The notes: generated by a model not told the origin, from the sequence alone. DNA of 64,000 nt from Candidatus Aenigmatarchaeota archaeon (GCA_038998585.1 JAVZGQ010000001.1:9684-73683); one strand, 5' to 3'. Counted from the stretch's first letter, positions 32,554 through 51,183 are shown. A program made the numbers and translations.

Positions 32554-32651
32554 TGCAGGGGGTGGGATTCGAACCCACGAAGGCACTAAGCCACTAGGTT
32601 TCCTCTTAACACCTAAGCCTAGCCCGATTGACCAGACTACGGGACCCCTGC
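32554..32651 (-). tRNA. tRNA-Leu(UAG) with ~12-nt intron in the anticodon loop
   Basis: Acceptor GCAGGGG/CCCCUGC-A, T-arm GUGGG-UUCGAAU-CCCAC, long variable arm; anticodon stem CUAGG/CCUAG encloses 19 nt (CUUAGG + 12-nt intron + A). Confidence 0.7.
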
Positions 32652-32711
32652 AATATTTGAGATAAGTTTTCTAGAAATTAAATCTTTGTTGTTTTTTATT
32701 TCAGGGACTAA

Positions 32712-33710
32712 ATGCTATTTATGAAAACTCTGATCAAAATACCAAAAGATGCCGAGCTTCCTTTAATAGGCCTAGTTCAAGTTGGTATGATAGACAGAGG
32801 GACAAATCTTTTACAGATAAGACCAACCACCATTTGTAATTTGAACTGTGTTTTTTGTAGTACTGATGCTGGGGGCCTTTCGAGGTATCACACTACCGAG
32901 TATGTTGTGGAAAAAGACTATTTGTTAGATTGGTTGAAAAATATCATTAAATTCAAAGGAAGTGTGCACGCCTTTTTCGACTCTGTTGGTGAAGTATTAA
33001 CCTACCCAAAGATTTTGGATCTATTATCTGAAGTTTCTCAACTCAAAGGAATTAAGAGTTTGGCTTTTGAAACAAATGGCACATTACTGACAGAAGAAAT
33101 AATTAAAGAGCTTGAAGAGATTAAGATCGATAGAATCAATTTGTCTTTACATGCTTTAGACGAGGAAATTAACAAAAAGCTCACAGGCTGTACGGAATAC
33201 AACACGAAGAGGATTGTTGAGCTATTAAAATTTATAACAAGAAGTAAAATAGAAATTTGTCTCACACCAGTTTGGGTTCCGGGCTTGAATGACCAAGAGA
33301 TACCAAAACTGATAGAGTTAGCTAAAGCTGAAATAAAGAACAAAAGATTTCCAATTCTTGGGATTCAGAAATACGAAGTCCATAGATTTGGAAGAAAGCC
33401 TAAAGGAGCTAGACCAATTTCTTGGTACAAATTTTTCGGACAACTGAAAAAATGGGAGGATGAATTTAAGGTCAAGCTAAAAATTTCACCTTCTGAATTT
33501 GGGATAGAAAAAGCCAGACATTTGCCGTTCGCTTTCAAGATTGGTGAAAGGGTTATGGTCGAAATTAGATCTCAAGGGTGGATGTTGAATGAAATGATAG
33601 GTGTTGCAAGACAAAGGAGTATAACAATAGTTGATTGTAAAGAAAGCTTAAACAAGTTGGTAAAAGTAAGGATTTTAAGAAATAGGGATAATATCTACAT
33701 TGCGAGATGA
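32712..33710 (+). CDS. radical SAM domain protein
   Basis: CNLNCVFC (Cx3Cx2C) near the N-terminus; 332 aa. Confidence 0.6.
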   Translation: MLFMKTLIKIPKDAELPLIGLVQVGMIDRGTNLLQIRPTTICNLNCVFCSTDAGGLSRYHTTEYVVEKDYLLDWLKNIIKFKGSVHAFFDSVGEVLTYPKILDLLSEVSQLKGIKSLAFETNGTLLTEEIIKELEEIKIDRINLSLHALDEEINKKLTGCTEYNTKRIVELLKFITRSKIEICLTPVWVPGLNDQEIPKLIELAKAEIKNKRFPILGIQKYEVHRFGRKPKGARPISWYKFFGQLKKWEDEFKVKLKISPSEFGIEKARHLPFAFKIGERVMVEIRSQGWMLNEMIGVARQRSITIVDCKESLNKLVKVRILRNRDNIYIAR

Positions 33711-34331
33711 ATGAAAAAAGAGCTCGAGTTTTTGCTTTCTCGGCTTAGACCATTGGAAAGACCAAAAATTAAGCTTGAGCAATACACCATACCGCCAGAC
33801 TTGGCAGCAGAGATTTTAAATCTTGCTTTTTTGTCAAAAGACATTAAGGACAAGTATGTGGCAGACTTTGGTTGCGGAAGTGGAAGGCTTGCAATAGGAG
33901 CGGCTTTACTTGAAGCTAAGAAAGTTATAGGAATAGATTTGGATGAAGAGGCAATAAAGCAAGCAAAAGAAAATTTGAAAATTGCTGAGGATTTGATTGG
34001 AAGAAAGCTAAAAGTTAAATTTATTTATTGTGATATAGCAAAATGGAAAGGAAAGTGTGATACAATTTTACAAAATCCACCTTTTGGTATAAAAGGAATT
34101 TATACTGATAAGATTTTTCTAGAGAAAGCTTTAACTTGTGCGAAAAAGATTTACTCTCTCCACAGGAATGGAAGAAAAGAGACAAGGAATTTCCTCATAA
34201 ATTTTATTTCTGCTCGAGGAGGCAAAATTGAAAACATAATTAAACTTAAATTTTTCTTACCATACACTTTTAAGTTTCACAAGAAGCCGAAAATAAGATA
34301 TGATGTTGATCTTTTTGTAATAAGATGTTAG
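33711..34331 (+). CDS. class I SAM-dependent methyltransferase with NPPF motif (HemK/METTL5-like RNA or protein methylase)
   Basis: DFGCGSGRL (motif I) and QNPPFG (motif IV). Confidence 0.6.
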
Positions 34332-34462
34332 TTTCATTGTAAGTTATAATCCTTTTAAAAAATTCTCTGTCACATTTTTAAATCCATACAAGTTTTTTGA
34401 TCATATTTAGTAGAGAAAACAATCCAATATTAGAAAACATATTTTTTAAAAAAATAAATTTA

Positions 34463-34558
34463 TGCCCCCTCAGGGATTTGAACCCTGGTTCACAGCCCGA
34501 GAAGCTGTTGTCCTATCGATTTTACATAGTTCAATTAACCGGGCTAGACGAAGGGGGC
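34463..34558 (-). tRNA. tRNA-Glu(CUC) with ~19-nt insertion (intron) in the D-loop
   Basis: Acceptor GCCCCCU/AGGGGGC-A, T-arm CAGGG-UUCAAAU-CCCUG, anticodon arm ACAGC-UUCUCGG-GCUGU; D-stem GUCU/GGAC encloses 31 nt beginning AGCCCGGUUAAU (Glu-like D-loop). Confidence 0.55.
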
Positions 34559-34872
34559 TTATTAAATTTATGCAATATATTATTGGTATTTTTAAATTGT
34601 TAAATTTTATTTCATCAAAGAAATTAAATACATTTTTACATCTATCGACACCAATACCATCTCTCATTACTATCCATTTAGAAAGTTTTAGGTCCAAAAT
34701 CAGATAAAAGATATTTATTCAAAGTTTAAACCAAATCTTTACTTTGTTTCTCTTTCTAATAATATTTTCCTCATCCATATGTCCTATGAGTTATAACCAT
34801 AGGATAGACAACTGACCTCTTAAAATTTCTTTTTAACATAAAAAATTTAAAGAAAGTGGAAAGAACAAAGTT

Positions 34873-35136
34873 TTATACAAGGATTTTGTAAACGGAATCC
34901 CCTTCTCTAACTTTATCAACAACTTTCAAACCAATTGCGTTTCCTGCTTTTGCTGTTTTTATTTGATTGTGCTCCATTTCCATACTTTCAACAGTTTGTT
35001 GGAAATTTGTGACATTACCTTCTATTGAGATCTTGTCGCCTACCGAAATCTCGTCTGTAACTTCAATTACAGCAACTCCAATCTTTCCATAGTAATGGGT
35101 AACTTTTCCAACTAACTTTTTTTCTTGATCTGCCAT
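34873..35136 (-). CDS. small beta-barrel protein (EF-Tu domain-2-like), hypothetical
   Basis: 87 aa; GKIGVAVIEV...VGDKISIEG pattern. Confidence 0.35.
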   Translation of the reverse strand: MADQEKKLVGKVTHYYGKIGVAVIEVTDEISVGDKISIEGNVTNFQQTVESMEMEHNQIKTAKAGNAIGLKVVDKVREGDSVYKILV

Positions 35137-35241
35137 AATTTATCTTTAGTTGGCTACTATTTAAATATTGCTTTTGTTCCTTTTGTTATTCCATATTCTG
35201 ATCAATAGGGTGTAATCTGATAGATTCATAAAAGAAATGTA

Positions 35242-35327
35242 TGGGCCTGGAGGGATTCGAACCCCCAACTCGAGGTTTCACCAAAAAACCGAAGCCTCGC
35301 CGGATATCCAAGTTTCCACACAGGCCC
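35242..35327 (-). tRNA. tRNA-Arg(UCG) with 12-nt intron after position 37
   Basis: Acceptor GGGCCUG/CAGGCCC-A, D-arm UGGA/UCCG, anticodon stem CGAGG/CCUCG enclosing CUUCGG + UUUUUUGGUGAA + A, T-arm GGGGG-UUCGAAU-CCCUC. Confidence 0.65.
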
Positions 35328-35606
35328 AATAATAGGTTGTCTTTTATTTAAAAAAAACTTGTGAGTATAAAAAATCAATTCTATCAATAAAATTAAAAAA
35401 TAAAAAAAGAGCGGGGATCAGAATTCTTCTGATTCCTCTTCCCCTATAAAGAGGTCTTCATCTTCGAAGGGATCCCACAGGTCTTCATTATCTTCTTTCA
35501 TCAGCCTCTCCTCCGCAAACCCATTTCTCCCAGGTCTAGAGTGTGAAACATAAAGCTAAGAGAGAAATAAGTTTTCCTGAACAAAGTGGGTTTGCTTATG
35601 GATAGA

Positions 35607-36773
35607 CTATCTGATTATATCTATCCCTAATGTTTGGCTGATTTCTCTTGACACTGGCGTTTCATAACTTACTGGCCCCAAGATATATGGCGACTTTACT
35701 CCTGTAACTATTACTATCACCTGTACTCTTCCCTCAAATTCTGGTAAAATCCTTGCTCCCCAGAAAACTTGTGCTGAAGGATCTAGATATTGTGAGACAG
35801 TTTCTCCAATCAGGTTTACTTCATCTAGTCTGAGATCAGGTCCACCTGTTATATGTACCAAAGCACCCTGAGCTCCTGTGTAGTCTACTTCGAGCAGTGG
35901 ATTCTCCAAGGCTCTTGTTATCGCGTCTTTGGCCCTGTCCGAGCTGTTACTCTCCCCAACTCCAATTGCTGCAACCCCTCCACCTGTGTGCATGACAGAC
36001 TTAACATCAGCATAATCCAGGTTGACAAGCGAGGGTAAGGTTATAGTTTCAGTTATTCCCTTCACCATCGAAGCTATCAACTCGTCCGCTACTGCAAAGG
36101 CCTGTTGGATTGAAAGATTGCCAGCATATTTCAAAAGCTTGTCATTCTCGATTACTATAACAGTATCACAAACTTGCCTCAGCCTTGCAAGACCATCTTC
36201 AGCCTTGGCAACTCTCGCCCCTTCTAGCTTGAAAGGCATTGTAGCAACAGCTATCACTATTGCCCCCGTTGATTTTGCTAGCTCACAAACAACTGGTATA
36301 CTCCCTGTCCCTGTTCCCTTTCCTAAGCCAGCTATTGCGAAAAGTAAGTCAACACCTTCCAAACATTCTTTTATTTCGTTTCTGCTTTCCTCGGCGGCCT
36401 TTCTTCCAACTTCCGGATAACCTCCACAGCCTAGACCTTTGGTCAATTCTTTACCTATCAAGATTTTCTTATCTGCTTTTGTAACAGCTAAAGCTTTAGC
36501 ATCTGTGTTCAGAGCTATTGTTGTAGCACCCTCAATTCCCATTTCTGTTAACCTAGTGACTGCATTGCTTCCCGCACCTCCACATCCAACCACAGCAATC
36601 TTAGCCTTTCTTACAGAAAATCCAAATTCTTGCTCAGCGAGCTTGTAGTAGTCTACATTACTGAAAGTTGCCCCACTTGTTGGTTCAAGCCTGAATCTTG
36701 TTTCTGGTCTATCTTCTCTCTGATTGCCAGTTGTTCTTGCTAAAGCGCTCTTTATGAGCGAATCCATTTGCAT
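35607..36773 (-). CDS. ftsZ: cell division protein FtsZ
   Basis: 388 aa; tubulin signature GLGKGTGTGS, GTP-binding AVVGCGGAGSN, T7 loop. Confidence 0.9.
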   Translation of the reverse strand: MQMDSLIKSALARTTGNQREDRPETRFRLEPTSGATFSNVDYYKLAEQEFGFSVRKAKIAVVGCGGAGSNAVTRLTEMGIEGATTIALNTDAKALAVTKADKKILIGKELTKGLGCGGYPEVGRKAAEESRNEIKECLEGVDLLFAIAGLGKGTGTGSIPVVCELAKSTGAIVIAVATMPFKLEGARVAKAEDGLARLRQVCDTVIVIENDKLLKYAGNLSIQQAFAVADELIASMVKGITETITLPSLVNLDYADVKSVMHTGGGVAAIGVGESNSSDRAKDAITRALENPLLEVDYTGAQGALVHITGGPDLRLDEVNLIGETVSQYLDPSAQVFWGARILPEFEGRVQVIVIVTGVKSPYILGPVSYETPVSREISQTLGIDIIR

Positions 36774-36883
36774 TTTTCATCCTCCTATATTCAACAAAAT
36801 ATATTTTGTTTCATCGAAAACCCTTTATTAAAGGTTTTCAATATTTTTCTTTAGAAATAGGTTGTGTGTAAAAAACACTACCT

Positions 36884-36920
36884 AGAACGAAACCCGAATT
36901 CTAACCCGACTTTAACCCGA
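36884..36920. repeat. three tandem copies of AACCCGA at 11-bp period upstream of ftsZ
   Basis: aaacccgaattct aacccgacttt aacccgaacta, about 110-150 nt upstream of the ftsZ start codon. Confidence 0.4.
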
Positions 36921-37122
36921 ACTAAATTAAATTTTAACAAACTCCGTGTAAATTTTTTGATAAAATAGATTTAAATACATTTTTTGTGTTTAAAATATAT
37001 GATGAAAATTGTATGATGGTGAATTTAAATTGTATAAAATATTTTTTTAATAATATATTTTTTAAATCAATCTTAATTATATTATAAAATTGATAAGATC
37101 TTTTTTTTGATTTCCAACCTTT

Positions 37123-37599
37123 TTAAAATTTTTTCATTTCAATAAAAATCCTTCTTGATTTTGGTAAAACATTTTCTATATAATTTTCTCTTAAAATTCC
37201 TGTGCCTACAAAATCTTTATCAAATTTTACAAGTACAAAGGAATTTATTTCGCAATTTATCAGTTTATGAGCCGAAAAATCAAGACCTTGTAAGAATTTT
37301 TTCAAATTTTCCTCATTGATAATAACAATATTTTTATTCGCCTTCTTTCCAACAAGTTGGACTCCTTCAACAGAAAGATGAATTTCCTCATTTTTCTTTA
37401 ACTTTCCAAAGTATAGGCCTAAAGCATTTATCCTTAGTTTAGAAGTATCCAATTCAAAAGCTTCATCTGATATAACCCAAATTTTATCTCCAGGAGTTTT
37501 GAACAATCTTTCTTTGAATTTAATTCTAGCCCCATAATTTTTTTCTAACAAATTCTCAAGATATACAATTTCTTCTAAGCCCATTTCTTCAACTTGCAT
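37123..37599 (-). CDS. hypothetical protein (158 aa), overlaps the Nsun gene by 25 nt in another frame; possibly an accessory or C-terminal domain partner
   Basis: Clean ORF directly downstream of the Nsun methyltransferase gene. Confidence 0.35.
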   Translation of the reverse strand: MQVEEMGLEEIVYLENLLEKNYGARIKFKERLFKTPGDKIWVISDEAFELDTSKLRINALGLYFGKLKKNEEIHLSVEGVQLVGKKANKNIVIINEENLKKFLQGLDFSAHKLINCEINSFVLVKFDKDFVGTGILRENYIENVLPKSRRIFIEMKKF

Positions 37600-38501
37600 A
37601 TAAAAAACCCCTCTGTGAAATTTTCAAATGGAAAGATTCGGATAGCATTTCTTATGCTTTCATCAAACTTTTTCCCGTTCCACTCCAAGATGCCTTCTCT
37701 ATATTTCAAATTCTTAATTTCAATCTTTTCAACACTTAGGCCAAGGTTTTTCACGCAGAAGTCAATTATTTCTTCATTTTCTTCTGGATCCAAAGAACAA
37801 GTTGAATAAACCAATGTTCCTTTTTCTTTCAAACATTTTGAGGCTGAGTATATAAGTTTTTTCTGCAAACTACTTAATTTTTCTACATTTGACTGTGACC
37901 AAAGTTTAAGTGAAGAGAACGTGCTTATAATTTTTCCACTTCCACTGCAAGGGGCGTCAACTAAAACTTTATCAAATTTTATTCCGTATTTCCAGAAATT
38001 TTCTCCTTTTTCATAAGTTAAAATACAATTTTTGACGCCCATTTTTTGCAAGTTAATCCGTAGGGCTTTTATTCTGTTCAGATTGTTATCATTAGCGACT
38101 ATTACTCCAGAATTTCTCATGATCATTGCGATTTGTGTTGTTTTTGAGCCAGGAGCTGCACATAAATCCAAGACTTTATCTTTCGGACTTGGGCTAAGGA
38201 TTAAGGGAGGAATCATTGAAGACGCTTCTTGAATATAATAGTATCCTAAAAAATATTCAAGAGTCTTTACAACATCTTTCTCATTTTCAACAAAAAACCC
38301 GTCCTTGTACCAAGGGATTTGTTTTAACTTCATCCCATTTTTTTCTAATCTTTTGACCAATTTTTCACTAGAAATTTTTATTGTGTTAACTCTTATCGAT
38401 TTTTTTGGTTTAAAAAATAAACAGGCTTCTAATTTTTCATATTCTTTACTTAAAAGTTTCTTATATTTTTCTTCAAAAGGTTTCGGTATTTTAATTTCCA
38501 T
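37575..38501 (-). CDS. RNA (cytosine-C5)-methyltransferase, NOL1/NOP2/Sun family
   Basis: LDLCAAPGSKTTQ (motif I), DAPCSGSG (motif IV with catalytic Cys), TCSL (motif VI Cys). Confidence 0.8.
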   Translation of the reverse strand: MEIKIPKPFEEKYKKLLSKEYEKLEACLFFKPKKSIRVNTIKISSEKLVKRLEKNGMKLKQIPWYKDGFFVENEKDVVKTLEYFLGYYYIQEASSMIPPLILSPSPKDKVLDLCAAPGSKTTQIAMIMRNSGVIVANDNNLNRIKALRINLQKMGVKNCILTYEKGENFWKYGIKFDKVLVDAPCSGSGKIISTFSSLKLWSQSNVEKLSSLQKKLIYSASKCLKEKGTLVYSTCSLDPEENEEIIDFCVKNLGLSVEKIEIKNLKYREGILEWNGKKFDESIRNAIRIFPFENFTEGFFICKLKKWA

Positions 38502-38555
38502 AATTAAATGGAAGTAAAATAAAAAGAATATTTTTTTCTATTAGCAAGGATATAT

Positions 38556-38858
38556 TTAATATGATTCAGATGATTTTATATTTTTCGAGTATTCAATTTT
38601 AATCCCATATAAATTTGCTAAGTTTCTAGCATTTTCATTCAGAGGCTTTTGTATTCTGAGTACACCTTCTTTATTTTCAACATCAGCGTCGAGCACTTTT
38701 ACATAAAGTTTCATCACAACTATCTCATCAGAAGAAGATTCGGTTTTTCTTATGATTTCTGAATAATCTTCGATTAGTCTAGTTTTTTCACGCGATTCAT
38801 CATATTCTATTGATGAAAACTCGTGTTCTATTCCAGATTTACCAATCTTTTTAACCAT
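38556..38858 (-). CDS. hypothetical protein (100 aa)
   Basis: ORF only. Confidence 0.3.
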   Translation of the reverse strand: MVKKIGKSGIEHEFSSIEYDESREKTRLIEDYSEIIRKTESSSDEIVVMKLYVKVLDADVENKEGVLRIQKPLNENARNLANLYGIKIEYSKNIKSSESY

Positions 38859-39306
38859 ATTATTATGATATTTGACTGACTATTTAAGCATTCTCATTCT
38901 CTGAGATACGAATCGATAGGATTTATTAATTCTTTAAAACACGCCATCGGTGGGACATTCAAAGAATTAGACTCCTACCCTTATTTTAAAATTACAGGTT
39001 GAAATTAAAAAACCTATTGGTTTCCAATATTTTTATTCTTTCAACATTTCTTAACAATTGTGAAGAAGAAATCCGAATGGCAAACAACTCCGATAAGAAG
39101 TTATAAGTATGCCTTCACTCCTGAAGAGATCAAAAAGATACTAGAAGTTGCAAAACCACACAGTTTCAGGTATACTGCTTATTGCTGACTCTCTTACTTA
39201 TTTCAAACATTTGAAAAATTATGATTCGATAAATAATGTTCTGTATAGTTTTAATAGTTTTAAAAGTTTTTTATAAATTTTATTGTTAAGATTTAATTAG
39301 AACTAT

Positions 39307-40017
39307 ATGCCTCAATTATTAAAAAAGTATGATGAAACATTAATAGAAACCATAAAAAGATACAATGAAATAGCTCCTCATTACAGTAGAGATGAGAGAG
39401 GAAAACTAGATAATGACCAAATTTTTCACTTAAAAAAGTTTATAAATTTTGTAGGATCACCCCCAAGAAAAATTTTAGATGCAGGTTGTGGCACAGGGAA
39501 AGACATTCTTTATCTTTCTTCATATGGATACGAACTTTTTGGAATAGATTTATCTTCTGGTATGTTAGAGGAGGCATTAAAAGTTGTGTATAACAAGAAT
39601 AACATACATTTACTAAGAGAAGATTTTAGGTATATGAGTTTTAGTAATTTTGTATTTGATGGTATATGGTGTAGTGCATCTCTGGTTCATTTGCCATATA
39701 AAGATAAACAAATAGCTCTTCAAGAATTTAATAGGGTTTTGAAAAAAGGGGAAATACTTTCCATAGGAATTCAAAATCTTTTATGTATAGATCGCTTAAT
39801 TCGTATTTTCAAATCTTATATAAGAAGGCCTATATATTCGTTAACCAAAACCTTCCTTTATAAAATGGAACTCGGATATGCCTACTATGATAAACGTCAT
39901 TGGTTCTTTCCGACAAAACCGTCTTTAATAAGGCTCGTAGAAGATGCGGGTTTTGAGATCATAGAAAGCAATAATGTTTTTTCAAAAAGGTTAAGAATCT
40001 ATGCTATAAAAAAATAA
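39307..40017 (+). CDS. class I SAM-dependent methyltransferase
   Basis: LDAGCGTGKD motif I; Methyltransf_11-like. Confidence 0.6.
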   Translation: MPQLLKKYDETLIETIKRYNEIAPHYSRDERGKLDNDQIFHLKKFINFVGSPPRKILDAGCGTGKDILYLSSYGYELFGIDLSSGMLEEALKVVYNKNNIHLLREDFRYMSFSNFVFDGIWCSASLVHLPYKDKQIALQEFNRVLKKGEILSIGIQNLLCIDRLIRIFKSYIRRPIYSLTKTFLYKMELGYAYYDKRHWFFPTKPSLIRLVEDAGFEIIESNNVFSKRLRIYAIKK

Positions 40018-40019
40018 AT

Positions 40020-40511
40020 ATGGATGTAGCAATTAAATTCGTATACTTATTAAAAAATATGGGAATTAATTTCGCTTCAGGTGTTCCTTGCGCTGTTCAA
40101 AAAGAAATAATTAAATATCTTTCAAATGATCCGGATATCATTCATATTCCAGCTACAAGAGAAGAAGAGGCAATAGGTATAACGGCAGGCGCATATTTGG
40201 GAGGAAAAAAACCTGTGTTTTATATGCAAAACTCAGGGCTTGGAAATTCTATAAATGCTATTACCTCATTATTAATAGCTTACAAAATTCCAGTCTTACT
40301 TTTAATTACATGGAGAGGATGTCCTGGAGAAGATGCACCACAACACTTACCTATGGGGGAAGCTACTCCAATGATTTTAAATAGTCTAAAAATACCCTTT
40401 CAAGTTATTACTAAAGAAAACATGGAAAAAGTAGTTTCCTTATCATTTGAATATATGAAAAAAAATTCATTACCTGTGGCTATTCTTTTTATAAGAGGCT
40501 TCTCTTTATGA
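40020..40511 (+). CDS. sulfopyruvate/phosphonopyruvate decarboxylase-like TPP enzyme, alpha (N-terminal pyrimidine-binding) subunit
   Basis: 163 aa ComD/Ppd-N-like; GVPCAV, TREEEAIGITAGAYLGGKKP. Confidence 0.6.
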   Translation: MDVAIKFVYLLKNMGINFASGVPCAVQKEIIKYLSNDPDIIHIPATREEEAIGITAGAYLGGKKPVFYMQNSGLGNSINAITSLLIAYKIPVLLLITWRGCPGEDAPQHLPMGEATPMILNSLKIPFQVITKENMEKVVSLSFEYMKKNSLPVAILFIRGFSL

Positions 40512-41074
40512 AAAGAGAAGATGCAGTCAAGTTAATATCTAAGGTATTGAAAGATAGGGAAAATGTTACAATAATTTCTTCTACAGGATTGATAAGTAGA
40601 GAATTATTTAGAATAAACGATAGTCCTCAAAATTTTTATATGACCGGATCTATGGGATTGGCATCTTCGATAGGATTGGGTTTAGCAATAGCACATACTA
40701 ATAGAAAAATCATTATCATCGAAGGAGACGGAAGTTTATTAATGAACATGGGTTCACTTGCAACAATTGGACACATTTCACCTAAAAATTTAATTCACAT
40801 TGTTTTAGATAACAATTCTTATGAGTCTAGTGGCGGTGAATGTACTGTTTCTAACACGGCTAACCTTGATAGTGTAGCAAAAATAGTTGGATATAAAAAT
40901 ACAGCAAAAGTTATTTGTGAAAAAGAATTAGAAAAAACTTTGATAGAATCACTTGATATAGATGGTCCTACATTTATACTTGTTAAAATCGAAAAAAGTG
41001 ATAAAAAAGATTTACCTAGAATACTAAATTTGGTGGAAATAAAAAATCGATTTATGAAATATTTATCTTCTTAG
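40508..41074 (+). CDS. sulfopyruvate/phosphonopyruvate decarboxylase-like TPP enzyme, beta (TPP-binding) subunit
   Basis: GSMGLASSIGLGLA...IIEGDGSLLMNMGSLATIG (the GDG...N TPP motif); start overlaps the alpha-subunit stop. Confidence 0.6.
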   Translation: MKREDAVKLISKVLKDRENVTIISSTGLISRELFRINDSPQNFYMTGSMGLASSIGLGLAIAHTNRKIIIIEGDGSLLMNMGSLATIGHISPKNLIHIVLDNNSYESSGGECTVSNTANLDSVAKIVGYKNTAKVICEKELEKTLIESLDIDGPTFILVKIEKSDKKDLPRILNLVEIKNRFMKYLSS

Positions 41075-43322: not shown

Positions 43323-43336
43323 CACCGAGTGATTAA

Positions 43337-43954
43337 ATGGGTAGGGACTTTTTACAAAAAACAATTAATGAATTATTTGAGTTATGGACTAGTAACTTGG
43401 ATACAAAAAGAAGTAGAATTAATATTTTTGAAAAAATAAGAGACATGCCTTTTGAAGTAATGCCCAATATATCTTTAGATTATGAAAAAAGTATAGAGTC
43501 AATTCTTGTTTATAAAAAGGGTTCTTGTACTTCAAAACACTTTCTTTTAGGAGAGTTATACAAAAGATTATACATTCCAATTAAATATGTGACGTATGTA
43601 TTTTACTGGTATGACTTAGAAGTTTCATATCCAATTAAATTAAAAAAACTTGCCTCAAAATTACCAGAACAGTATCACCTTGCATGTATAGCATATATTG
43701 AAGAGCGAAATGTGCTAATCGATGCTACATGGGACTTAGCTTTAAAGAAAGTAGGTTTTACTGTAAATGAGCAGTGGGATGGTATAAATGATACATTAAA
43801 TTCAATCAAACCTATAGATATGATTGTTCATGATACTCCAGAAGAAAGAATAGATTATCTTAAAGCAAAAATAAAAAATAATACAAACCCCTTGATTAGT
43901 AAATTTTATTGTGAGCTGAATAGATGGTTAAATGAAATTAGAAGTGGTAAGTAA
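43337..43954 (+). CDS. transglutaminase-like superfamily protein (putative cysteine protease fold)
   Basis: KKGSCTSKHFLLGELYKRLYIP resembles the G.C...A.L...LLR..GIP transglutaminase-core motif. Confidence 0.4.
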   Translation: MGRDFLQKTINELFELWTSNLDTKRSRINIFEKIRDMPFEVMPNISLDYEKSIESILVYKKGSCTSKHFLLGELYKRLYIPIKYVTYVFYWYDLEVSYPIKLKKLASKLPEQYHLACIAYIEERNVLIDATWDLALKKVGFTVNEQWDGINDTLNSIKPIDMIVHDTPEERIDYLKAKIKNNTNPLISKFYCELNRWLNEIRSGK

Positions 43955-44173
43955 AACTGGTTTTATGAACAATATTTGTAATTTGTATCCGTAGACTCTG
44001 TTTATTAAAATTTAAAGTATATTCTTTTACTCCCGGGAATATATTTAAAGTATGGGTTAGATTAAAATATTTTTGACTACGATTATGTAATTAGAAACCC
44101 CTTTAACAACTATATATTTTAGAGCTATAATCAAAAAAGTTTGAAATATTTGTCCTAAAAGTTTTCTAAAAAT

Positions 44174-44395
44174 TTAAAAAAAACATAAATATTTTTCTAT
44201 CCTTCTTTTTGAATAGTTGTTCGCTTCAAGCTTTCTCCAAAACTCTAACACACTTTCATAAGTTTTGACATCTATTTGTCTGAGAACCTCTAAGTTTGAT
44301 TTGATTCTGTGTTCTCGAGTATACAGGATCTTCCATGTTTTTAGCCTTATTCTACTTGCTAATAAATGCCAAAATGGGAATTGAAGAAATAAGCA
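44174..44395 (-). pseudogene. tyrosine-recombinase (integrase) N-terminal-domain fragment abutting tRNA-Asn
   Basis: ...NLEVLRQIDVKTYESVLEFWRKLEANNYSKRRIEKYLCFF resembles the SAM-like N-terminal domain of integrases; the called ORF's first 16 codons are tRNA sequence; there is no catalytic domain. Confidence 0.35.
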
Positions 44396-44500
44396 CGCCC
44401 TCGGTGGGATTTGAACCCACGACCTACCGGTTAACAGCCTCACCTTCCTTCTGGAATCGGGTGCTCTACCACTGAGCTTCCCCCGTATAACTACGAGGGC
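44396..44500 (-). tRNA. tRNA-Asn(GUU) with two short insertions (putative introns: ~14 nt after position 9, ~20 nt at 29/30)
   Basis: Acceptor GCCCUCG/CGAGGGC-G, D-arm GCUC-AGUGGUA-GAGC, loop CUGUUAA, 3' anticodon stem CCGGU, T-arm GUGGG-UUCAAAU-CCCAC; the 5' anticodon stem ACC..GG is split by CGAUUCCAGAAGGAAGGUGA; GUUAUACGGGGGAA lies between U8A9 and the D-stem; the leader carries a GCCCUCG-AGAGA-GCCCUCG direct repeat. Confidence 0.5.
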
Positions 44501-44569
44501 TCTCTCGAGGGCCCAACTAAATTAATATCTTATTTTTATTATATCTTATTTTCTTACATATTTTCAACT

Positions 44570-45856
44570 TCAGGGATACACTCTGTTTACTAGTCTTGGA
44601 AAAGCAATCGCATCCCTTATATGTTTGAGCTTACAAATCCACATCACAAATCTTTCAATTCCCAAACCAAACCCTGCATGTCGAACAGAGCCATATTTTC
44701 TCAAGTCCAAATACCATTTATAGGCAGAGACGTCGAGCTTCTCCTCTTCTATCCTTTTCATCAACTCTTCAAAACTTTCAATCCTTTCCCCAGAACCAAT
44801 TATTTCTCCATAGCCTTCTGGAGCCAGCATATCAACACTTAAAGTTACATTTGGGTTTTGTGGATCAGGTTTGTGATAGAATGCCTTTATTCCCTTTGGG
44901 AAATGTGTGACAAAAAAAGGAGTTTTAAACTCAAGTGCTAAAACTTTTTCTTCATCTGCCCCGAGATCATCCCCATATTTTACCTTCACCCCTTTTTCTT
45001 GCAGAATTTTTATCGCTTCTTCATATTTTATTCTTGGGAAAGGGGGCACCATCTTCAAAAAATCTTCAGGATTTCTTCCCAATTCTTTCAACTCAATTTC
45101 ACACTCTCTAGCAACTTTTTGTAAGATATGGACCACCAATTCTTCTTCAATCTTTACTAATTCTTCAAAGCCACAAAAAGGCATCTCAGCCTCAAGATGC
45201 CAGAATTCTGTTAAATGTCTTCTCGTCCTAGACTTCTCTGCCCTGAATGATGGAGCTATCGTGTAACATCTTCCAAAACCAAAAATCATTGCTTCTCCAT
45301 ACAATTGCCAAGACTGGGTCAAGTAGGCTTTAGAATCAAAGTACTTTAGTTCAAACAAGGTTGACCCACCTTCGCAAGCAGCCCCAACTATTATCGGCAC
45401 CTGGACTTCCAGGTAGCCATGCTCTTTAAACCATTCTCTTGCAGCTTCTAAGACTTTGGCCCTAATTTTTATTATTCTGTTCATCTTCTTACTTCTTATC
45501 CAAAAATGACGGTTGTCTAATAGAAATTCAGGACCATGATATTTTTTTCCAATCGGGAAATCTTCCATTGCTCTACTCAAAACTTTAACTTTTTCCACTA
45601 CTATTTCGTATCCATAGGGTGCTCTTTGATCTTTCTTTACTTTACCAAAAATTTCTATCGCAGATTCCAGGGGCAATTTTTCAATTTCATCAAAAGTTTT
45701 TTCATCTAACTGATCTTTCTTTAAAGTGCATTGGATGAAGCCTGTACCATCTCTTACTATCAAGAATAGAATACCGCCTGAGCTACGTTTGTTGTGAAGC
45801 CAACCTTTAATTTCAACTTCCCCTTCCAATTTCTTAAATATCTCAGCTATATCCAT
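44570..45856 (-). CDS. asnS: asparaginyl-tRNA synthetase
   Basis: 428 aa class IIb aaRS (OB domain, motifs 1-3, C-terminal AGFGLGIERFVMW...AFPR); assigned Asn rather than Asp because it is flanked by two tRNA-Asn genes and an asnA/asnC-like pair, and a distinct AspRS is at 7957. Confidence 0.65.
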   Translation of the reverse strand: MDIAEIFKKLEGEVEIKGWLHNKRSSGGILFLIVRDGTGFIQCTLKKDQLDEKTFDEIEKLPLESAIEIFGKVKKDQRAPYGYEIVVEKVKVLSRAMEDFPIGKKYHGPEFLLDNRHFWIRSKKMNRIIKIRAKVLEAAREWFKEHGYLEVQVPIIVGAACEGGSTLFELKYFDSKAYLTQSWQLYGEAMIFGFGRCYTIAPSFRAEKSRTRRHLTEFWHLEAEMPFCGFEELVKIEEELVVHILQKVARECEIELKELGRNPEDFLKMVPPFPRIKYEEAIKILQEKGVKVKYGDDLGADEEKVLALEFKTPFFVTHFPKGIKAFYHKPDPQNPNVTLSVDMLAPEGYGEIIGSGERIESFEELMKRIEEEKLDVSAYKWYLDLRKYGSVRHAGFGLGIERFVMWICKLKHIRDAIAFPRLVNRVYP

Positions 45857-45890
45857 ATAATCACATATTTTATTTTATAAAAATAAAATA

Positions 45891-45963
45891 CTGCGGCGGG
45901 GAGAATCGAACTCCCATCACCAGGTTAACAGCCTGGTATGCTAGCCTTTAGCACCACGCCGCT
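45891..45963 (-). tRNA. tRNA-Asn(GUU), intronless
   Basis: Clean cloverleaf: D-arm GUGC-UAAAGGCUA-GCAU, anticodon arm CCAGG-CUGUUAA-CCUGG, T-arm GGGAG-UUCGAUU-CUCCC, discriminator G; the 1:72 pair is an A-A mismatch. Confidence 0.75.
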
Positions 45964-46121
45964 ATAGCTCAAGCTAGGAATAAAAACAAATTCAAGGATT
46001 TTTTTATTTTGATAAAAACTGACCAAAAATTAGAACAAGTCTCGCTAAATATCGTTTTGGCAATCACCCTTCACTTTACCACCTTATAATTTTTCCCTCT
46101 TTTGTATTTAAATAATTAGCT

Positions 46122-47108
46122 CTATGGCGAAACGATTCCGGGAACTTTAGGGAAAGGAACAGCTTCCCAAATTTTTTCTATACCACAAACCCATCTTGTC
46201 AGTCTTTCCACACCAATTCCAAATCCAGAAGATGGTGGTATACCGGCCTTCAACATACCTAAATACCATTTGTACTTCTTGGGGTTTTCTCCAGTTTTTT
46301 TCATTCTTTCAACAACTTTTTGATATTCGTGTTCTCTTTCCCCTCCAGAAATAACTTCACCAAAGCCTTCTGGTAAAATCAAGTCAAAATCCCTCAATCT
46401 TTTCGTTTTTGGATCTTCAAGATAATAGAATCCTCTTGCCTTAAGAGGATAGTCGGTTATCCAGAATGGCTCAGAGTTTTGAGCTGAAAGAGCTTCTTCA
46501 GCCTCCCAAGGAATTTCTTCTTCGTCTCCCATCTTGAACCCAAGCTTCCTCACCGCCTCTACTGCTTGATGGTGAGTTAATCTTTTGAAAGGAGTTTTAG
46601 GAATTTTTATATTCCTGTTGAAAATTTTCAGCTCTTTGAAACATTTTTTCTTCAGATCTTTTAATACATAAACAATCATTTTTTCTCCTAAATACATAGA
46701 ATCTTCATAAGTGGCGTAAGCTTCTTCCAAATCAATTTGCCTGAATTCGGCCAAATGTCTTCCCGTCTGTGCAGACTTAATGGGTTCAATCCTTATGTTT
46801 GGCGAAAGAGAAAAAATTTTGTTAATAGAGGAAATTGCCATCTGCTTGTATAAGATCATACTGCTCATGAGTCTAAATTTCTGTCCATAAAAATTTATCA
46901 TCACTTGTTTCGCACCCCTTATTCCTGGGTCAGTAGCAGGACCAATTATTGGGGCAAGAATTTCTATGAACCCATGTTTTCTTAAAAATTCTCTTATGGC
47001 TGTTAAAATTTCATCTTGAATTTTAAGCATTGCTACCATTTTAGGATGTTTTAAAGTTATGTATCTATACTTGATTGAATCGAGTTTGTCAAGCTTCATA
47101 TTCATCAA
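46122..47108 (-). CDS. asnA: AsnRS-paralogous asparagine synthetase A-like protein (class II aaRS catalytic core without anticodon-binding domain)
   Basis: 328 aa; class II motifs (FRAE..., GFGIGVERL) but no N-terminal OB domain; resembles the archaeal AS-AR type. Confidence 0.5.
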   Translation of the reverse strand: MMNMKLDKLDSIKYRYITLKHPKMVAMLKIQDEILTAIREFLRKHGFIEILAPIIGPATDPGIRGAKQVMINFYGQKFRLMSSMILYKQMAISSINKIFSLSPNIRIEPIKSAQTGRHLAEFRQIDLEEAYATYEDSMYLGEKMIVYVLKDLKKKCFKELKIFNRNIKIPKTPFKRLTHHQAVEAVRKLGFKMGDEEEIPWEAEEALSAQNSEPFWITDYPLKARGFYYLEDPKTKRLRDFDLILPEGFGEVISGGEREHEYQKVVERMKKTGENPKKYKWYLGMLKAGIPPSSGFGIGVERLTRWVCGIEKIWEAVPFPKVPGIVSP

Positions 47109-47142
47109 ACTTTTTATATACTTAAGCTAATAAATTAAATTT

Positions 47143-47421
47143 ATGCAACAAAAGCTAAAAAAGGTTAAGGCATTTATATTGGCTTCTTTCACCTATACAC
47201 AAAAAGGAAAAATATTGGATCAAAAAGAAATCTTAAATCAGATTTCAAAATTCTCAGAAGTTGAAGAGGCTCATATCATAAGCGGGAATTGGGATATTTT
47301 GATAAAAGTAGCTATGAGTAGCGTGGATGAAATAGGAGAGTTTGTGGTTAACAAGCTTAGGAAGATAAAAGGAATAGAGAAAACAATAACCTGCATGGTC
47401 TTCCATACTGCAAAAGAGTGA
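47143..47421 (+). CDS. Lrp/AsnC-family C-terminal (RAM) ligand-binding domain protein
   Basis: 92 aa stand-alone RAM domain (EEAHIISGNWDILIKV...); divergent from the asnA-like gene. Confidence 0.6.
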   Translation: MQQKLKKVKAFILASFTYTQKGKILDQKEILNQISKFSEVEEAHIISGNWDILIKVAMSSVDEIGEFVVNKLRKIKGIEKTITCMVFHTAKE

Positions 47422-47423
47422 AT

Positions 47424-47729
47424 TTAAACTTCTTCTCCCACTTCTTCTGTAGTTTCTCCCACTTCTTCTGACATCTCAGGCACATTTATATGTTTGATTA
47501 TTACTATGTCGCCAACAGCCTGAACTACAGGATAAGGAACTATAACCCCCTTTTTACCTCCTAAAGTTTTACCTAAGAAGCCTTCCCTTGCGGCTTCTAC
47601 CACCAGGCTTCTTATTTTGAATCTCGCTAGGTCAAACTCGACATCAGAAACCCTACCACAGTAAAAGCCTTTTGCAGTGAAGACATCCTTACCGAATAAG
47701 TCAGCCACATCTCTGACATTGATTGGCAT
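47424..47729 (-). CDS. PRC-barrel domain protein
   Basis: 101 aa; glycine-rich beta-barrel pattern with an acidic tail. Confidence 0.5.
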   Translation of the reverse strand: MPINVRDVADLFGKDVFTAKGFYCGRVSDVEFDLARFKIRSLVVEAAREGFLGKTLGGKKGVIVPYPVVQAVGDIVIIKHINVPEMSEEVGETTEEVGEEV

Positions 47730-47795
47730 TTGTATTCCTCCTTAATAGAATTATGTTTTAATATTAAATAAACTTTTGTTTATAAATTAATTATT

Positions 47796-47894
47796 GCCTA
47801 GGTGGCCGAAATTTTAGTCGGTATTCCGGTCAAGGCGCCAGTCTGCTAAGCTGGTGGTCGAAAGACCGTGTGGGTTCAAATCCCACCCTAGGCG
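47796..47894 (+). tRNA. tRNA-Ser(GCU) with ~17-nt insertion (intron) in the D-loop
   Basis: Acceptor GCCUAGG/CCUAGGC-G, anticodon arm CCAGU-CUGCUAA-GCUGG, long variable arm GGUCGAAAGACC, T-arm GUGGG-UUCAAAU-CCCAC; the D region GUGGCCGA[AAUUUUAGUCGGUAUUC]CGGUCAAGGCG is interrupted relative to canonical Ser D-arms. Confidence 0.6.
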
Positions 47895-48243
47895 TGCCCA
47901 TTTATTCAATTCTCATTTTGGAAAATAGCTATTGTTTTAAAAATCTTTATTTGAATCTGATAAAAGAAAAATTGATGAAAACCAAAAGCATTAGAAAGTA
48001 TTTTCTTGAAAAGATGATTTGTAGATTAGTTTTTAAAAAATTACTTTCTGGTTACCTTTCTTTCTTGTCAAAAAGAACATGTATAATAAGAGAAAAGGTA
48101 AAAAATTAGAAAATCAGTTCTTTCAATGTTAGATCAAATATTCCTATAAAATAGATTTGGTTTGCGAAGAATAAAATGTTCTTTAGTTTTTGAGGAATGG
48201 AAAGGCTTAAATAATTAATTGTTTCTATTCTTACATAGATAAA

Positions 48244-49125
48244 ATGGTGAATAAGAAAACAAAGCATGCAAATTCCAATAAGAAAATACTCTCTTATGAA
48301 GATGAGATCTTAATTCCAATTACCTTAGAAGAAACCCCGTATGAAGCTTATATTTTAATTAAAAAGAGAGAGGATTTAGAAAAACCCTCTTCTAGGCAAG
48401 TGTATGTCCCTGCTATAATCCCCAAATACTATATGGGGGGAAAAGACTATGTTGTAGATGAAATTAAAAAAATTAATAAGCAGTTAAAAATTAATAATCG
48501 GTCAGTTCTAGAAAATAAACCTTCACAAGATCCACCAAACGAGCCTGAGTACAAGAAAACCATTTTGGATATTATAAATAAAAAAGGCAAAGAGATAAAA
48601 AGAGAGATTCAAAACGAGGTTCAAAATGCTTTAAAAGATCTTGAGAAGAAAATGGATGAGAAAATAAATTTAATCTTGGAAGAAATTAAAAAACAAAAAG
48701 TTTTAGAAGAGTCACAAAATTCTCTTAAATCTCAAACAGGAACACAACAATCTCAAGAAGAATTTGAAAAAATTGCATCAGAATATGTGGTTAGTAAAAA
48801 AATTATAGAGAGTGACGAGGATTTTAAGGAGTATTTGGATAAAACTAAAAAAATAATTGAAGATGTAAAAAGTGGAAAAATAGATATTAAAAAACTTTTA
48901 GAATATATGAGGAATAAAATTCCATGCTACGATTTTTCTGAGGTACAACCTTATATGCCCATAATAATCGCAGCTGTAAAGAATTCTATAGAGCTTAAAG
49001 AAGAAGAATCTGATATATATCCTAGTTTTTGTAATATCTTATATAATCTCTCAACTTCAGATGCTGAAAATTTTAAGAATTGTTCAGAACTTTACAAAAT
49101 ATGTAGTGAGGGAGAAGAAAATTAA
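48244..49125 (+). CDS. hypothetical lysine/glutamate-rich protein (293 aa, coiled-coil)
   Basis: ORF only. Confidence 0.35.
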   Translation: MVNKKTKHANSNKKILSYEDEILIPITLEETPYEAYILIKKREDLEKPSSRQVYVPAIIPKYYMGGKDYVVDEIKKINKQLKINNRSVLENKPSQDPPNEPEYKKTILDIINKKGKEIKREIQNEVQNALKDLEKKMDEKINLILEEIKKQKVLEESQNSLKSQTGTQQSQEEFEKIASEYVVSKKIIESDEDFKEYLDKTKKIIEDVKSGKIDIKKLLEYMRNKIPCYDFSEVQPYMPIIIAAVKNSIELKEEESDIYPSFCNILYNLSTSDAENFKNCSELYKICSEGEEN

Positions 49126-49129
49126 AGAG

Positions 49130-50107
49130 TTATTTGAGTAGTTTTATTAAATCATTTATATTTTTTTTACCGCTTATAATCTCATTTATTATTCTATCCA
49201 CTTCTCCTTGAAGCACAAAACCTAAATTTGAATACGCTTGATACTGTGGCGATCCTTTGCTACCTTTTATGCTCAGCAATGCATTATTTAGTACTGCCCC
49301 CTTGTAACCTTTTATTTTATTAATATAAGTGAGAAGTGCTGCCTTTGCATTTTTTTCAATCTCTAATCCTGTTTTTATAGCATCTTGCAAGTTTTTTGTA
49401 TATTCCTCAAGCTTGAACCAATTTTCTACCATATATTGCAGAGCTTTAACGAATAGGACTGCCCCAAATACTCCAATCAACCCCCACACACCATATCCAT
49501 ACATATCTAGTAAGAAAAACCCAAATAATTGTCTAGAAGCATACATAGAAATTATAAAAGAGAGAATGAGTGTGACTGATCTTCCCACATTGCCTAGCAA
49601 ATCTTCAACTCCCACTTTGCTCATTATCCCATACATAAAAGTAAAGACAAATGCGAATGGTAAAATTAGATAAAATACTGCAAAGACAGTCCAACCCAAG
49701 TCTCCTACTTCTATTGGAAAGTAACCATTTGTCGTACAAGACCAAATAGCAATTGCATCAGTTATTTTTGTTGGGGTTTCTTTTGTCCCGAATAGACTCG
49801 TACATTTTTCCAACATAATTTGTGATGAAGGGTATTGTTGAATGAAAGTTTTGAGCAAGTTTATTTCCAACAACAAAACAAAAATGAAGAGAAAAAAGTA
49901 GCCAACATATCTTAATATCTTGCCCCATATGAAAGGTAAGAAAGTACTAATCATAAAAAGAAGTGCTGTAGAAACAATTGCCACAAAAATCATTGGATGA
50001 GCGAAGAAATCAAGTTGATTCCCAAAAAGCTTTAAAATAGCAAATTGGGCAATAAAATAAAACAATATAATTCCTAAGCCAACACCAAATACTTTAAAAT
50101 TTGGCAT
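49130..50107 (-). CDS. hypothetical polytopic membrane protein (325 aa)
   Basis: About 8 predicted TM helices. Confidence 0.4.
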   Translation of the reverse strand: MPNFKVFGVGLGIILFYFIAQFAILKLFGNQLDFFAHPMIFVAIVSTALLFMISTFLPFIWGKILRYVGYFFLFIFVLLLEINLLKTFIQQYPSSQIMLEKCTSLFGTKETPTKITDAIAIWSCTTNGYFPIEVGDLGWTVFAVFYLILPFAFVFTFMYGIMSKVGVEDLLGNVGRSVTLILSFIISMYASRQLFGFFLLDMYGYGVWGLIGVFGAVLFVKALQYMVENWFKLEEYTKNLQDAIKTGLEIEKNAKAALLTYINKIKGYKGAVLNNALLSIKGSKGSPQYQAYSNLGFVLQGEVDRIINEIISGKKNINDLIKLLK

Positions 50108-50482
50108 AATAACTATTTAGAAACATAAGCTTAAAAATGTTAAGAAAGAATTCTTGATGCGCTATTTCTACTATTTAGATTCTGTAAGAAAAATTAGGTC
50201 AGTCTTAGATTTTAAATTAAAGAATGTTTACATACTATGAATAGTCTTTTTCTATTGTATAATATGAATTATTTTGGCTTAACATCAAACATCAAAAGAT
50301 AGTTTTCCTGCTTTTGAATAATTTTGCTGTAGTCAACTTCCGAGGTCAATCAATAAAGTTAATGAAAATTAGATTTAAGTAGCTGTGGCTAAAGGTTTTT
50401 AAATTTAAAAAGAAATAATATTAGTGAGAATTGAAGAAAAGCACTTTACCACACTGGGAGTGTTTATACTTAAAGTGTTTGA

Positions 50483-50992
50483 ATGGACATTACGCTTTTG
50501 CTGATACTTTTCATACTTCTCTATTTTTGGGTAAAATTAATTTTGAACGAAGCGATTTACATTCCTTTACCAGGTTCAACAATAAGAAAAATGTTAAAGC
50601 TCGCTAAAGTGAATAAAAAAGATTTGGTTTATGATTTGGGCGCCGGTGACGGGAGAGTTGTGATAATTGCAGCAAAAGAATTTGGTTGTAAAGCTGTAGG
50701 GATTGAGAGAAGTGCTTTGCTTGCTGCTATTTGTAGATGGAAAATAAAAAGAGCCAGGCTTCAAGGCAAAGTTAAAATTATTAATAAAAATTACTTTAAT
50801 GTCAATCTGAGCAAGGCCACAGTAATAACAGCCTACCTTTCTAAAAGACAAAATGAAAGACTTGTACCCAAGCTGAAAAAAGAATTGAGAAGTGGGACAA
50901 GAATAGTTTCTGCATCTCACATTTTTCCAGGTTTAAAAGAAATGAAAAGAATAAAAACAGGGCATTTTTATTCTTATTTATATAAAATCTAA
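50483..50992 (+). CDS. small class I SAM-dependent methyltransferase with N-terminal TM helix
   Basis: VYDLGAGDGRV motif I. Confidence 0.5.
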   Translation: MDITLLLILFILLYFWVKLILNEAIYIPLPGSTIRKMLKLAKVNKKDLVYDLGAGDGRVVIIAAKEFGCKAVGIERSALLAAICRWKIKRARLQGKVKIINKNYFNVNLSKATVITAYLSKRQNERLVPKLKKELRSGTRIVSASHIFPGLKEMKRIKTGHFYSYLYKI

Positions 50993-51006
50993 ATTTTATT
51001 GAAAAA

Positions 51007-51088
51007 GGGTCCGTAGTCTAACGGTAGGACGTCAAGTTTGCGGAACCCTGACACGGTGAAGAAAGGAGTTCAATTCTCCTCGGACCCA
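51007..51088 (+). tRNA. tRNA-Val(GAC) with 11-nt intron at position 29/30
   Basis: Acceptor GGGUCCG/CGGACCC-A, D-arm GUCU-AACGGUA-GGAC, 5' anticodon stem UCA[AGUUUGCGGAA]CC pairing with GGUGA, loop CUGACAC, T-arm AGGAG-UUCAAUU-CUCCU. Confidence 0.6.
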
Positions 51089-51096
51089 CTTTCTAA

Positions 51097-51183
51097 AGCC
51101 CCAGGCGGGATTTGCACCCGCGACCTCATGCTTACCATGCTTACGCAGATCTTATGCGCTCTAGCTAGCTGAGCTACTGGGGC
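51097..51183 (-). tRNA. tRNA-Thr(GGU) with 13-nt intron at position 29/30; unusual T-loop (G at position 55)
   Basis: Acceptor GCCCCAG/CUGGGGC-U, D-arm GCUC-AGCUAGCUA-GAGC, 5' anticodon stem CAU[AAGAUCUGCGUAA]GC pairing with GCAUG, loop AUGGUAA, T-arm GCGGG-UGCAAAU-CCCGC; tandem 9-nt GUAAGCAUG repeat. Confidence 0.5.

Follow-up and report, generated by a model that had tools for sequence, protein, structure and literature searches.

Seven of the eight tRNA genes in a 64-kb window of a Candidatus Aenigmatarchaeota archaeon genome (GCA_038998585.1 JAVZGQ010000001.1:9684-73683; "the window" means this whole stretch, with positions counted from its first letter) are interrupted by eight inserts of 11–21 nt, which are very probably archaeal introns of the type cut by the splicing endonuclease EndA at bulge-helix-bulge (BHB) motifs, about half of them in relaxed form. 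We read them in this way because the insertions are precise, their removal restores tRNA cloverleaves, and two 3-nt bulges surround a 4-bp helix at the junctions. The whole window was searched with Rfam covariance models, ARAGORN and a scan of our own, which looks for an intact T-arm and then a 7-bp acceptor match, and together these gave eight tRNA genes and no others, all within 32.5–51.2 kb. Loci of relatives (given L-numbers here) served for comparison; gene order is largely kept between these loci and the window, so the orthologous tRNA genes could be read directly in them. The genes and their predicted introns are as follows.

32554–32651, minus strand: tRNA-Leu(UAG), class II, interrupted; Rfam 43.5 bits (E-value mode), spliced form called tRNA-Leu(tag) by ARAGORN
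32600–32611, minus strand: Leu intron, 12 nt, TGTTAAGAGGAA, at the canonical position 37/38; exact gap against L003 and L024
34463–34558, minus strand: tRNA-Glu(CUC), interrupted in the D-loop; missed by Rfam and mislabelled by ARAGORN, spliced form called tRNA-Glu(ctc) by ARAGORN
34515–34535, minus strand: Glu intron, 21 nt, in the D-loop at ~20/21; exact gap against L003, L016 and L028
35242–35327, minus strand: tRNA-Arg(UCG), interrupted; Rfam 43.7 bits, the anticodon loop aligned with 12 extra nt, spliced form called by ARAGORN
35277–35288, minus strand: Arg intron, 12 nt, TTTTTTGGTGAA, at the canonical position 37/38
44396–44500, minus strand: tRNA-Asn(GUU)#2, with two introns; partial Rfam match only, 32.3 bits
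44479–44492, minus strand: Asn#2 intron, 14 nt, AGTTATACGGGGGA, at 8/9; homologous introns in L002, L014 and L015
44439–44457, minus strand: Asn#2 intron, 19 nt, at 30/31; homologous introns in L003 (14 nt) and L015 (21 nt)
45891–45963, minus strand: tRNA-Asn(GUU)#1, the sole continuous tRNA gene of the window; Rfam 54.4 bits, full length
47796–47894, plus strand: tRNA-Ser(GCU), class II, interrupted in the D-loop; located by the T-arm and acceptor scan, spliced form called tRNA-Ser(gct) by ARAGORN
47811–47824, plus strand: Ser intron, 14 nt, in the D-loop at 15/16; exact gap against L001 and L003
51007–51088, plus strand: tRNA-Val(GAC), interrupted; Rfam 49.2 bits, aligned with 11 extra nt
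51035–51045, plus strand: Val intron, 11 nt, AGTTTGCGGAA, at 29/30; exact gap against L001, L003 and L016
51097–51183, minus strand: tRNA-Thr(GGU), interrupted; Rfam 45.7 bits, aligned with 13 extra nt, spliced form called by ARAGORN
51141–51153, minus strand: Thr intron, 13 nt, AAGATCTGCGTAA, at 29/30; same intron in L001–L003

Two of the eight inserts lie at the canonical position 37/38 (Leu and Arg) and six at non-canonical positions, namely 8/9 and 30/31 in Asn#2, 15/16 in Ser, ~20/21 in Glu and 29/30 in both Val and Thr. The Rfam tRNA model aligns the Val, Thr, Arg, Asn#2 and Leu genes only by way of an unmodelled insertion (11, 13, 12, 19 and 12 extra bases, respectively), tRNA-Glu and tRNA-Ser went unreported by Rfam even at E ≤ 1, the tRNA-Ser locus was found by neither Rfam nor ARAGORN, and ARAGORN mislabelled interrupted tRNAs when given the unspliced loci. 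An initial annotation of this DNA had proposed that seven of the eight genes are interrupted and that only the tRNA-Asn at 45891–45963 is continuous, which Rfam, ARAGORN and the T-arm scan bear out; continuous tRNAs with other boundaries, the outcome it had named as speaking against its proposal, did not appear, since Rfam either opens insertions or misses the genes. The ~12-nt anticodon-loop inserts that it placed in Leu(UAG) and Arg(UCG) are 12 nt each, at 37/38, and its 11-nt Val and 13-nt Thr inserts at 29/30 recur as Rfam insertions, in Val also as an exact gap against orthologues. It was right about the two inserts in the second tRNA-Asn, whose sites it had left unspecified and which we place at 8/9 and 30/31. 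For Glu and Ser the D-loop location stands, the size of 17–20 nt does not, and has to be corrected to 21 nt in Glu and 14 nt in Ser. The genes are contiguous and colinear at all eight loci, that is, neither split nor permuted.

Aligned with intron-less orthologues, with which their exons are near-identical, the interrupted genes show exact gaps of 11, 12, 14, 14, 19 and 21 nt; for example, the Asn#2 alignment has a 14-nt and a 19-nt gap against L001, L004 and L024. After in-silico splicing, ARAGORN called eight of eight tRNAs with the expected anticodons. The earlier claim that removal of the inserts restores the stems thus held for every gene, giving eight clean cloverleaves whose sequences match those of intron-less orthologues almost base for base. 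Spliced Asn#2 has exactly the sequence of the intron-less gene of L001 (72 nt, Rfam 76.3 bits), and spliced Val differs by one base from its L001 orthologue, the intron-less Val genes of L001, L002, L003 and L016 scoring 66–69 bits with Rfam. The intron-less Leu orthologue lies at 15753–15838 in L003.

In the BHB geometry as we tested it, exon bases −6 to −3 from the 5′ splice site pair with intron bases −6 to −3 from the 3′ splice site, forming a 4-bp helix H flanked by two 3-nt bulges, each of which is cut after its second base. An unconstrained BHB scan of each precursor was dropped, as many spurious candidates outranked the true motifs; because it was too noisy, the test was anchored on junctions defined by orthologues, and helix pairing was scored only at junctions fixed beforehand in this manner. 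Helix H has all four pairs in five of the eight introns (Glu, Asn 8/9, Asn 30/31, Ser and Thr) and three of four in the remaining three (Leu, Arg and Val). Summed over all introns, 29 of 32 positions pair, versus 12.7 ± 2.6 in shuffled introns with a maximum of 23 among 20,000 shuffles, and pairing at the insert junctions is beyond chance.

The strict motif with outer helix h and inner helix h′ (hBHBh′) is present at three junctions: Asn 8/9 (H CCUC/GGGG, h 4, h′ 2), Asn 30/31 (H CACC/GGUG, h 2, h′ 4) and Glu (H CGGU/AUCG, h 2, h′ 2). In Leu, Arg, Val and Ser the inner helix is absent, the 5′ bulge being continuous with a small loop; the outer helix measures 6 bp in Leu (bulges GG^U and AA^A), 5 in Arg, 4 in Val and 1 in Ser (H GCCG/CGGU). 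The Thr junction lacks the outer helix (h 0, h′ 1) and has H GCGC/GCGU. The 3′ bulge is A-rich throughout and reads AA^N in five of the eight introns. About 20 additional introns in relatives, at other positions, have the same geometry, and where their junctions are ambiguous the alternatives offer only 0–2 of 4 pairs. Introns common to several genomes keep helix H while the intron side changes. Opposite CUUC, the intron side of Arg is GGUG, GAAG, GAGG, GGAG or GUGG across genomes, and a G.U pair in the Thr helix becomes G-C in L003.

Each feature of the BHB-intron class that we examined was found, including the insert within the gene, the restored cloverleaf, the bulge geometry and an RtcB-type ligase gene in the window. 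Several points nevertheless weigh against assignment to this class. Three H helices carry one mismatch, four introns lack h′ and the Thr intron lacks h, and a strict α4 or α′2 endonuclease would not be expected to cut such relaxed motifs. No EndA gene was found in the window by Pfam, including a permissive run, on all open reading frames (ORFs) of at least 100 aa not nested in a larger ORF. The case is built on sequence, splicing itself being predicted, and the view is limited to 64 kb of the genome, so that uninterrupted second copies may lie elsewhere.

Such copies are what one would expect if the interrupted loci were decaying tRNA pseudogenes whose functional counterparts are encoded outside the visible 64 kb, and for Asn(GUU) a further gene, a continuous one, is in fact found at a distance of 1.4 kb. 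We give this explanation a slim chance. The exons are otherwise undamaged and match their orthologues fully or nearly so, the BHB geometry of the insert junctions greatly exceeds what chance would give, relatives whose AsnRS is only 64–88% identical still have introns at these sites, and each gene retains an A/T-rich upstream box and a downstream T-run. DPANN genomes, moreover, are small and usually hold one gene per tRNA, which we also counted against it. Slimmer still is the chance that the inserts are retained in the mature tRNA, where they would enlarge the D-loop or the anticodon arm. On paper the D-loop inserts of Glu and Ser break no cloverleaf stem, yet these inserts carry the full 4/4 helix and the 3-nt bulges of splice sites, the six others interrupt either the anticodon arm, in its stem or its loop, or the 8/9 junction, and relatives use the same tRNAs without inserts. 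Assembly or sequencing artefacts might be suspected in what appears to be an assembly of an uncultivated organism, but this has next to no probability when independent assemblies from other samples have diverged homologous introns at the same sites (Asn 8/9 in L002, L014 and L015; Asn 30/31 in L003 and L015; Thr in L001–L003; Arg in six loci).

Judged by its nearest protein relatives, the host is a DPANN archaeon of the Aenigmatarchaeota and not a member of the Thermoproteales. The window AsnRS (44570–45856) shares 86–88% identity with proteins from L001–L003, which are hot-spring Candidatus Aenigmatarchaeota metagenome-assembled genomes (MAGs), and 80% with those of L004–L006, and the nearest RtcB proteins bearing an organism name are labelled Aenigmatarchaeota. 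The window has a G+C content of 33.5% and encodes FtsZ, whose presence argues against Thermoproteales. The suggestion of "some DPANN" among the lineages first proposed for this intron density was therefore right.

Besides the tRNA genes, the window holds genes for RNA-processing components, one of which is itself interrupted, and an interrupted rnhB.

22432–23927, plus strand: rtcB, RNA-splicing ligase; full Pfam RtcB profile after removal of two 19-nt inserts
22661–22679 and 22746–22764, plus strand: rtcB inserts, 19 nt each, causing a frame shift and stop codons; exact gaps against L081 and L082
24524–24943, minus strand: Archease, RtcB cofactor; Pfam PF01951, 1.5e-44
29008–29262, minus strand: archaeal RNase P RNA; Rfam RF00373, 118 bits
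6975–7708, plus strand: rnhB (RNase HII), with a 35-nt insert at 7007–7041 after GIDEAGR

If the inserts are BHB introns, as we favour, each gene would be transcribed together with its intron or introns, the 3′ part of the intron would pair with the four exon nucleotides lying 3–6 nt upstream of the 5′ splice site, and the transcript would take up a BHB or relaxed BHB fold, with each splice site in a 3-nt bulge and the 4-bp helix between the two. EndA would then cleave after the second nucleotide of each bulge, RtcB with Archease would join the exons, and RNase P would remove the leader. In the short introns (11–14 nt) a loop would replace the inner helix h′. Because half of the introns lack h′ and one lacks h, the enzyme would have to accept relaxed motifs, and it is reasonable to infer an EndA of broad specificity. 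In a tblastn search with M. jannaschii EndA as query, neither the window nor 80 loci yielded an EndA of this lineage, and a search for EndA homologues returned no entry named Aenigmatarchaeota.

The inserts in rtcB and rnhB, which the initial annotation had connected with the tRNA inserts as possible mRNA introns, likewise show BHB geometry, and excision at the junctions concerned puts each gene back in frame. Removing both rtcB inserts extends the Pfam RtcB coverage of the large ORF from 72–426 to 1–426 and yields a protein of 485 aa with the GYGFPIGG and GIGFDINCG motifs. Spliced rnhB encodes 232 aa and covers positions 1–199 of 199 in Pfam RNase_HII, and both spliced genes match uninterrupted orthologues. 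At the two rtcB junctions helix H has 3/4 and 3/4 pairs, with h′ of 3 and 4 bp and a 3′ bulge AA^U, whilst in rnhB all four positions of H pair (UGGU/GCCA) and the inner helix is 6 bp long; pairing of this extent is reached in only 0.03–0.7% of shuffles. Junctions for rtcB read off the stop codons, shifted by 0–2 nt, had given poor helices, and the junctions restoring consensus residues were found by a frame-aware scan. Given the tRNA introns, the inserts in rtcB and rnhB are credible as introns rather than pseudogene lesions, and if those in rtcB are introns, the ligase would join its own mRNA in a self-dependent loop.

An RsmB-like pair at 37123–38501 was considered as a split gene and rejected, the upstream ORF ending at a normal C-terminus, and no intron was counted. 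Between PrimPol and rtcB lies a gap of ~1 kb (21425–22431) containing a LAGLIDADG-like ORF at 21509–21934 (plus strand, 141 aa), where the gap in L082 is only 142 nt; the region may be a free-standing homing-endonuclease insertion.

Comparison with close relatives points to rapid gain and loss of these mini-introns, which appears to be a new point. Within one and the same tRNA-Ser gene the intron takes up three sites (15/16 for the window, 30/31 for both L001 and L002, 37/38 for L003), and the gene is intron-less in L016, L022, L024 and L028; the Val and Glu introns of the window are absent in all relatives seen. The fetched AsnRS loci contain 23 tRNA-Asn genes, of which 12 have one to three introns (8/9, D-loop, 30/31 and 37/38; at least five sites overall) and the other 11 are intron-less. 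The Asn pair at 8/9 and 30/31 is common to the window, L014 and L015, whilst L002 keeps only the 8/9 intron, L003 only the 30/31 intron and L001 neither, a distribution which implies recent intron losses from Asn#2. Similarly, the Arg intron site at 37/38 is conserved in L003, L005, L006, L012, L016 and L021 and absent in L015. L016 and L028 contain introns of 10 nt, which is below the published range of 11–129 nt for tRNA introns (2014 review, PMC4090602). The tRNA-Asn of L012 (11288–11407), 120 nt in all, has three introns (D-loop, 30/31 and 37/38). A Bathyarchaeota tRNA-Asn of 134 nt (L059, 12955–13088) also has an intron at 8/9, and AsnRS and tRNA-Asn may be travelling together between Aenigmatarchaeota and Bathyarchaeota.

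The 8/9 intron of tRNA-Asn#2 is accompanied by a copy of the 5′ acceptor strand in the 5′ leader, an association that likewise seems to be new.

44506–44512, minus strand: copy of the 5′ acceptor strand, GCCCTCG, 5 nt upstream of tRNA-Asn#2
L002 10810–10816, L014 just upstream of 9408, L015 4558–4564: leader copy in relatives

The copy is present in four of four Aenigmatarchaeota-type genes with an 8/9 intron (the window, L002, L014 and L015), 3–5 nt upstream; the linkers between copy and gene vary, but the copy itself does not, not even in L002 and L014, whose true strand has diverged. In no other scanned tRNA-like locus was a second acceptor-complementary 7-mer found within 25 nt upstream, the other double matches lying at least 56 nt upstream. 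The 8/9 intron pairs with acceptor positions 3–6, and the 3′ acceptor strand would therefore be left unpaired. In both the minimum-free-energy and the centroid folds the copy pairs with the 3′ acceptor strand in all four genes, and the true 5′ acceptor strand stays paired with the intron when the copy is present. Replacing the copy in silico lets a normal acceptor stem form and lowers the probability of the splicing helix from 0.34–1.00 to 0.01–0.63. As a surrogate strand, the leader copy would hold the 3′ acceptor strand and force a splicing-competent fold. An alternative origin, as a remnant of an integration event, would follow the model of PMC3293823. In L059, the Bathyarchaeota locus whose tRNA-Asn contains an 8/9 intron, the leader copy is absent, but the inner helix is 6 bp long. 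We rejected the copy as the real 5′ end of tRNA-Asn#2 with a longer intron, as the tRNA of the window and of L015 would then be without U8 and helix H of L014 would fall to 3/4.

Multiple, non-canonical BHB introns were reportedly described in tRNA genes of Thermoproteales by Sugahara et al. in 2008 and Fujishima et al. in 2010. This phenotype has been reviewed (PMC4033280, PMC4090602), and the tRNA genes studied here resemble it in the many interrupted genes, in up to three introns per gene (here the tRNA-Asn of L012), in the favoured sites 20/21, 29/30, 30/31 and 37/38, in relaxed hBH and HBh′ motifs and in fast gain and loss; the window's tRNA set is likewise intron-rich, with 7/8 genes interrupted, 6/8 introns non-canonical and one gene carrying two. 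Our case differs in its host, which is no crenarchaeon of the Thermoproteales, with their (αβ)2 EndA bearing the crenarchaeal loop, but a DPANN archaeon that encodes FtsZ (33.5% G+C), and in its introns, which stand at the bottom of the size range (11–21 nt, and 10 nt in relatives, versus the published 11–129 nt); nor did we see any sign of the intron-to-intron similarity that suggested transposition there. Nearer to hand, several DPANN lineages possess an α4 EndA with an extra L3 loop and show increased tRNA gene disruption (Kaneta et al. 2018, PMC5829648). Other DPANN with ε2 (ARMAN-2/Micrarchaeota) or α4-L3 EndA (PMC3239211, PMC3488258, PMC5829648) belong to the same superphylum and share non-canonical introns and relaxed motifs, and a link from modified EndA, with an L2 or L3 insertion that broadens its specificity, to more tRNA gene disruption has been proposed. 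Aenigmatarchaeota tRNA genes were not analysed in these three papers, where the phylum occurs only within the acronym, and a search of the literature on Aenigmatarchaeota combined with intron terms found nothing specific. On the strength of its motifs, the phenomenon is the known BHB intron, here in a lineage for which we found no prior description.

In the split tRNAs of Nanoarchaeum equitans and Caldivirga maquilingensis, as would be the case at tRNA-Asn#2, leader or trailer sequence pairs to build an endonuclease substrate, whereas the genes here are contiguous and colinear and the leader copy pairs with the 3′ acceptor strand, outside the BHB. For protein-coding genes, pre-mRNA splicing in archaea was confirmed only for cbf5 as of a 2009 paper (PMC2738675). 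The cbf5 intron of Desulfurococcales and Sulfolobales (PMC2738675) is comparable to those predicted here, being a BHB-type intron in a protein-coding gene, presumably cut by EndA. The present inserts differ from it in lying in rtcB and rnhB, in a different phylum, in being 19 and 35 nt long, not multiples of three and with stop codons inside, and in their absence from close relatives; one of the two host genes encodes the ligase itself.

We tentatively suggest, at rather less than even confidence, that in this Aenigmatarchaeota lineage splicing by EndA and RtcB may have become part of gene expression in general and may still be spreading, including the use of the leader copy as a surrogate strand. 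We do so because mini-introns of 10–35 nt appear to be gained and lost between genomes with 86–88% identical AsnRS, because protein-coding genes (rnhB with one insert, rtcB with two) are interrupted as well as nearly every tRNA gene, and because the leader seems to have gained a surrogate copy of the acceptor strand just where the 8/9 intron ties up the 5′ strand. The tRNA introns themselves would extend the intron-rich phenotype, best known from Thermoproteales, to a DPANN phylum. As close relatives carry different introns, the lineage captures the coming and going of BHB introns at several natural stages, a kind of record which the field has asked for on the origins of non-canonical introns. 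In practice, standard tRNA finders miss or mislabel most genes of this kind, and the tRNA complements of such MAGs would look incomplete as a result.

Some further observations concern the tRNA genes and their neighbours. The tRNA-Thr(GGU) has a D-loop, AGCUAGCUA, without the usual GG, and a T-loop, UGCAAAU, with G at position 55, both of which are kept in L001–L003. A second tRNA-Asn(GUU) gene is unexpected for a small genome. The gene order around it is AsnRS paralogue (46122–47108), tRNA-Asn#1 (45891–45963), AsnRS (44570–45856) and tRNA-Asn#2, all on the minus strand. The position of tRNA-Asn#1 upstream of AsnRS is conserved in L001–L003, as is its A1.A72 mismatch, and its anticodon stem shows compensatory changes. 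The paralogue is without the anticodon-binding domain and is asparagine-synthetase-like; a hidden N-terminal exon was considered for this AsnRS-like ORF and rejected, the upstream region being a promoter-like spacer. Near the start of the window lies a gene with an intein.

1756–5259, minus strand: MCM with an intein; Pfam Intein_splicing and LAGLIDADG_3 (LAGLIDADG domain)

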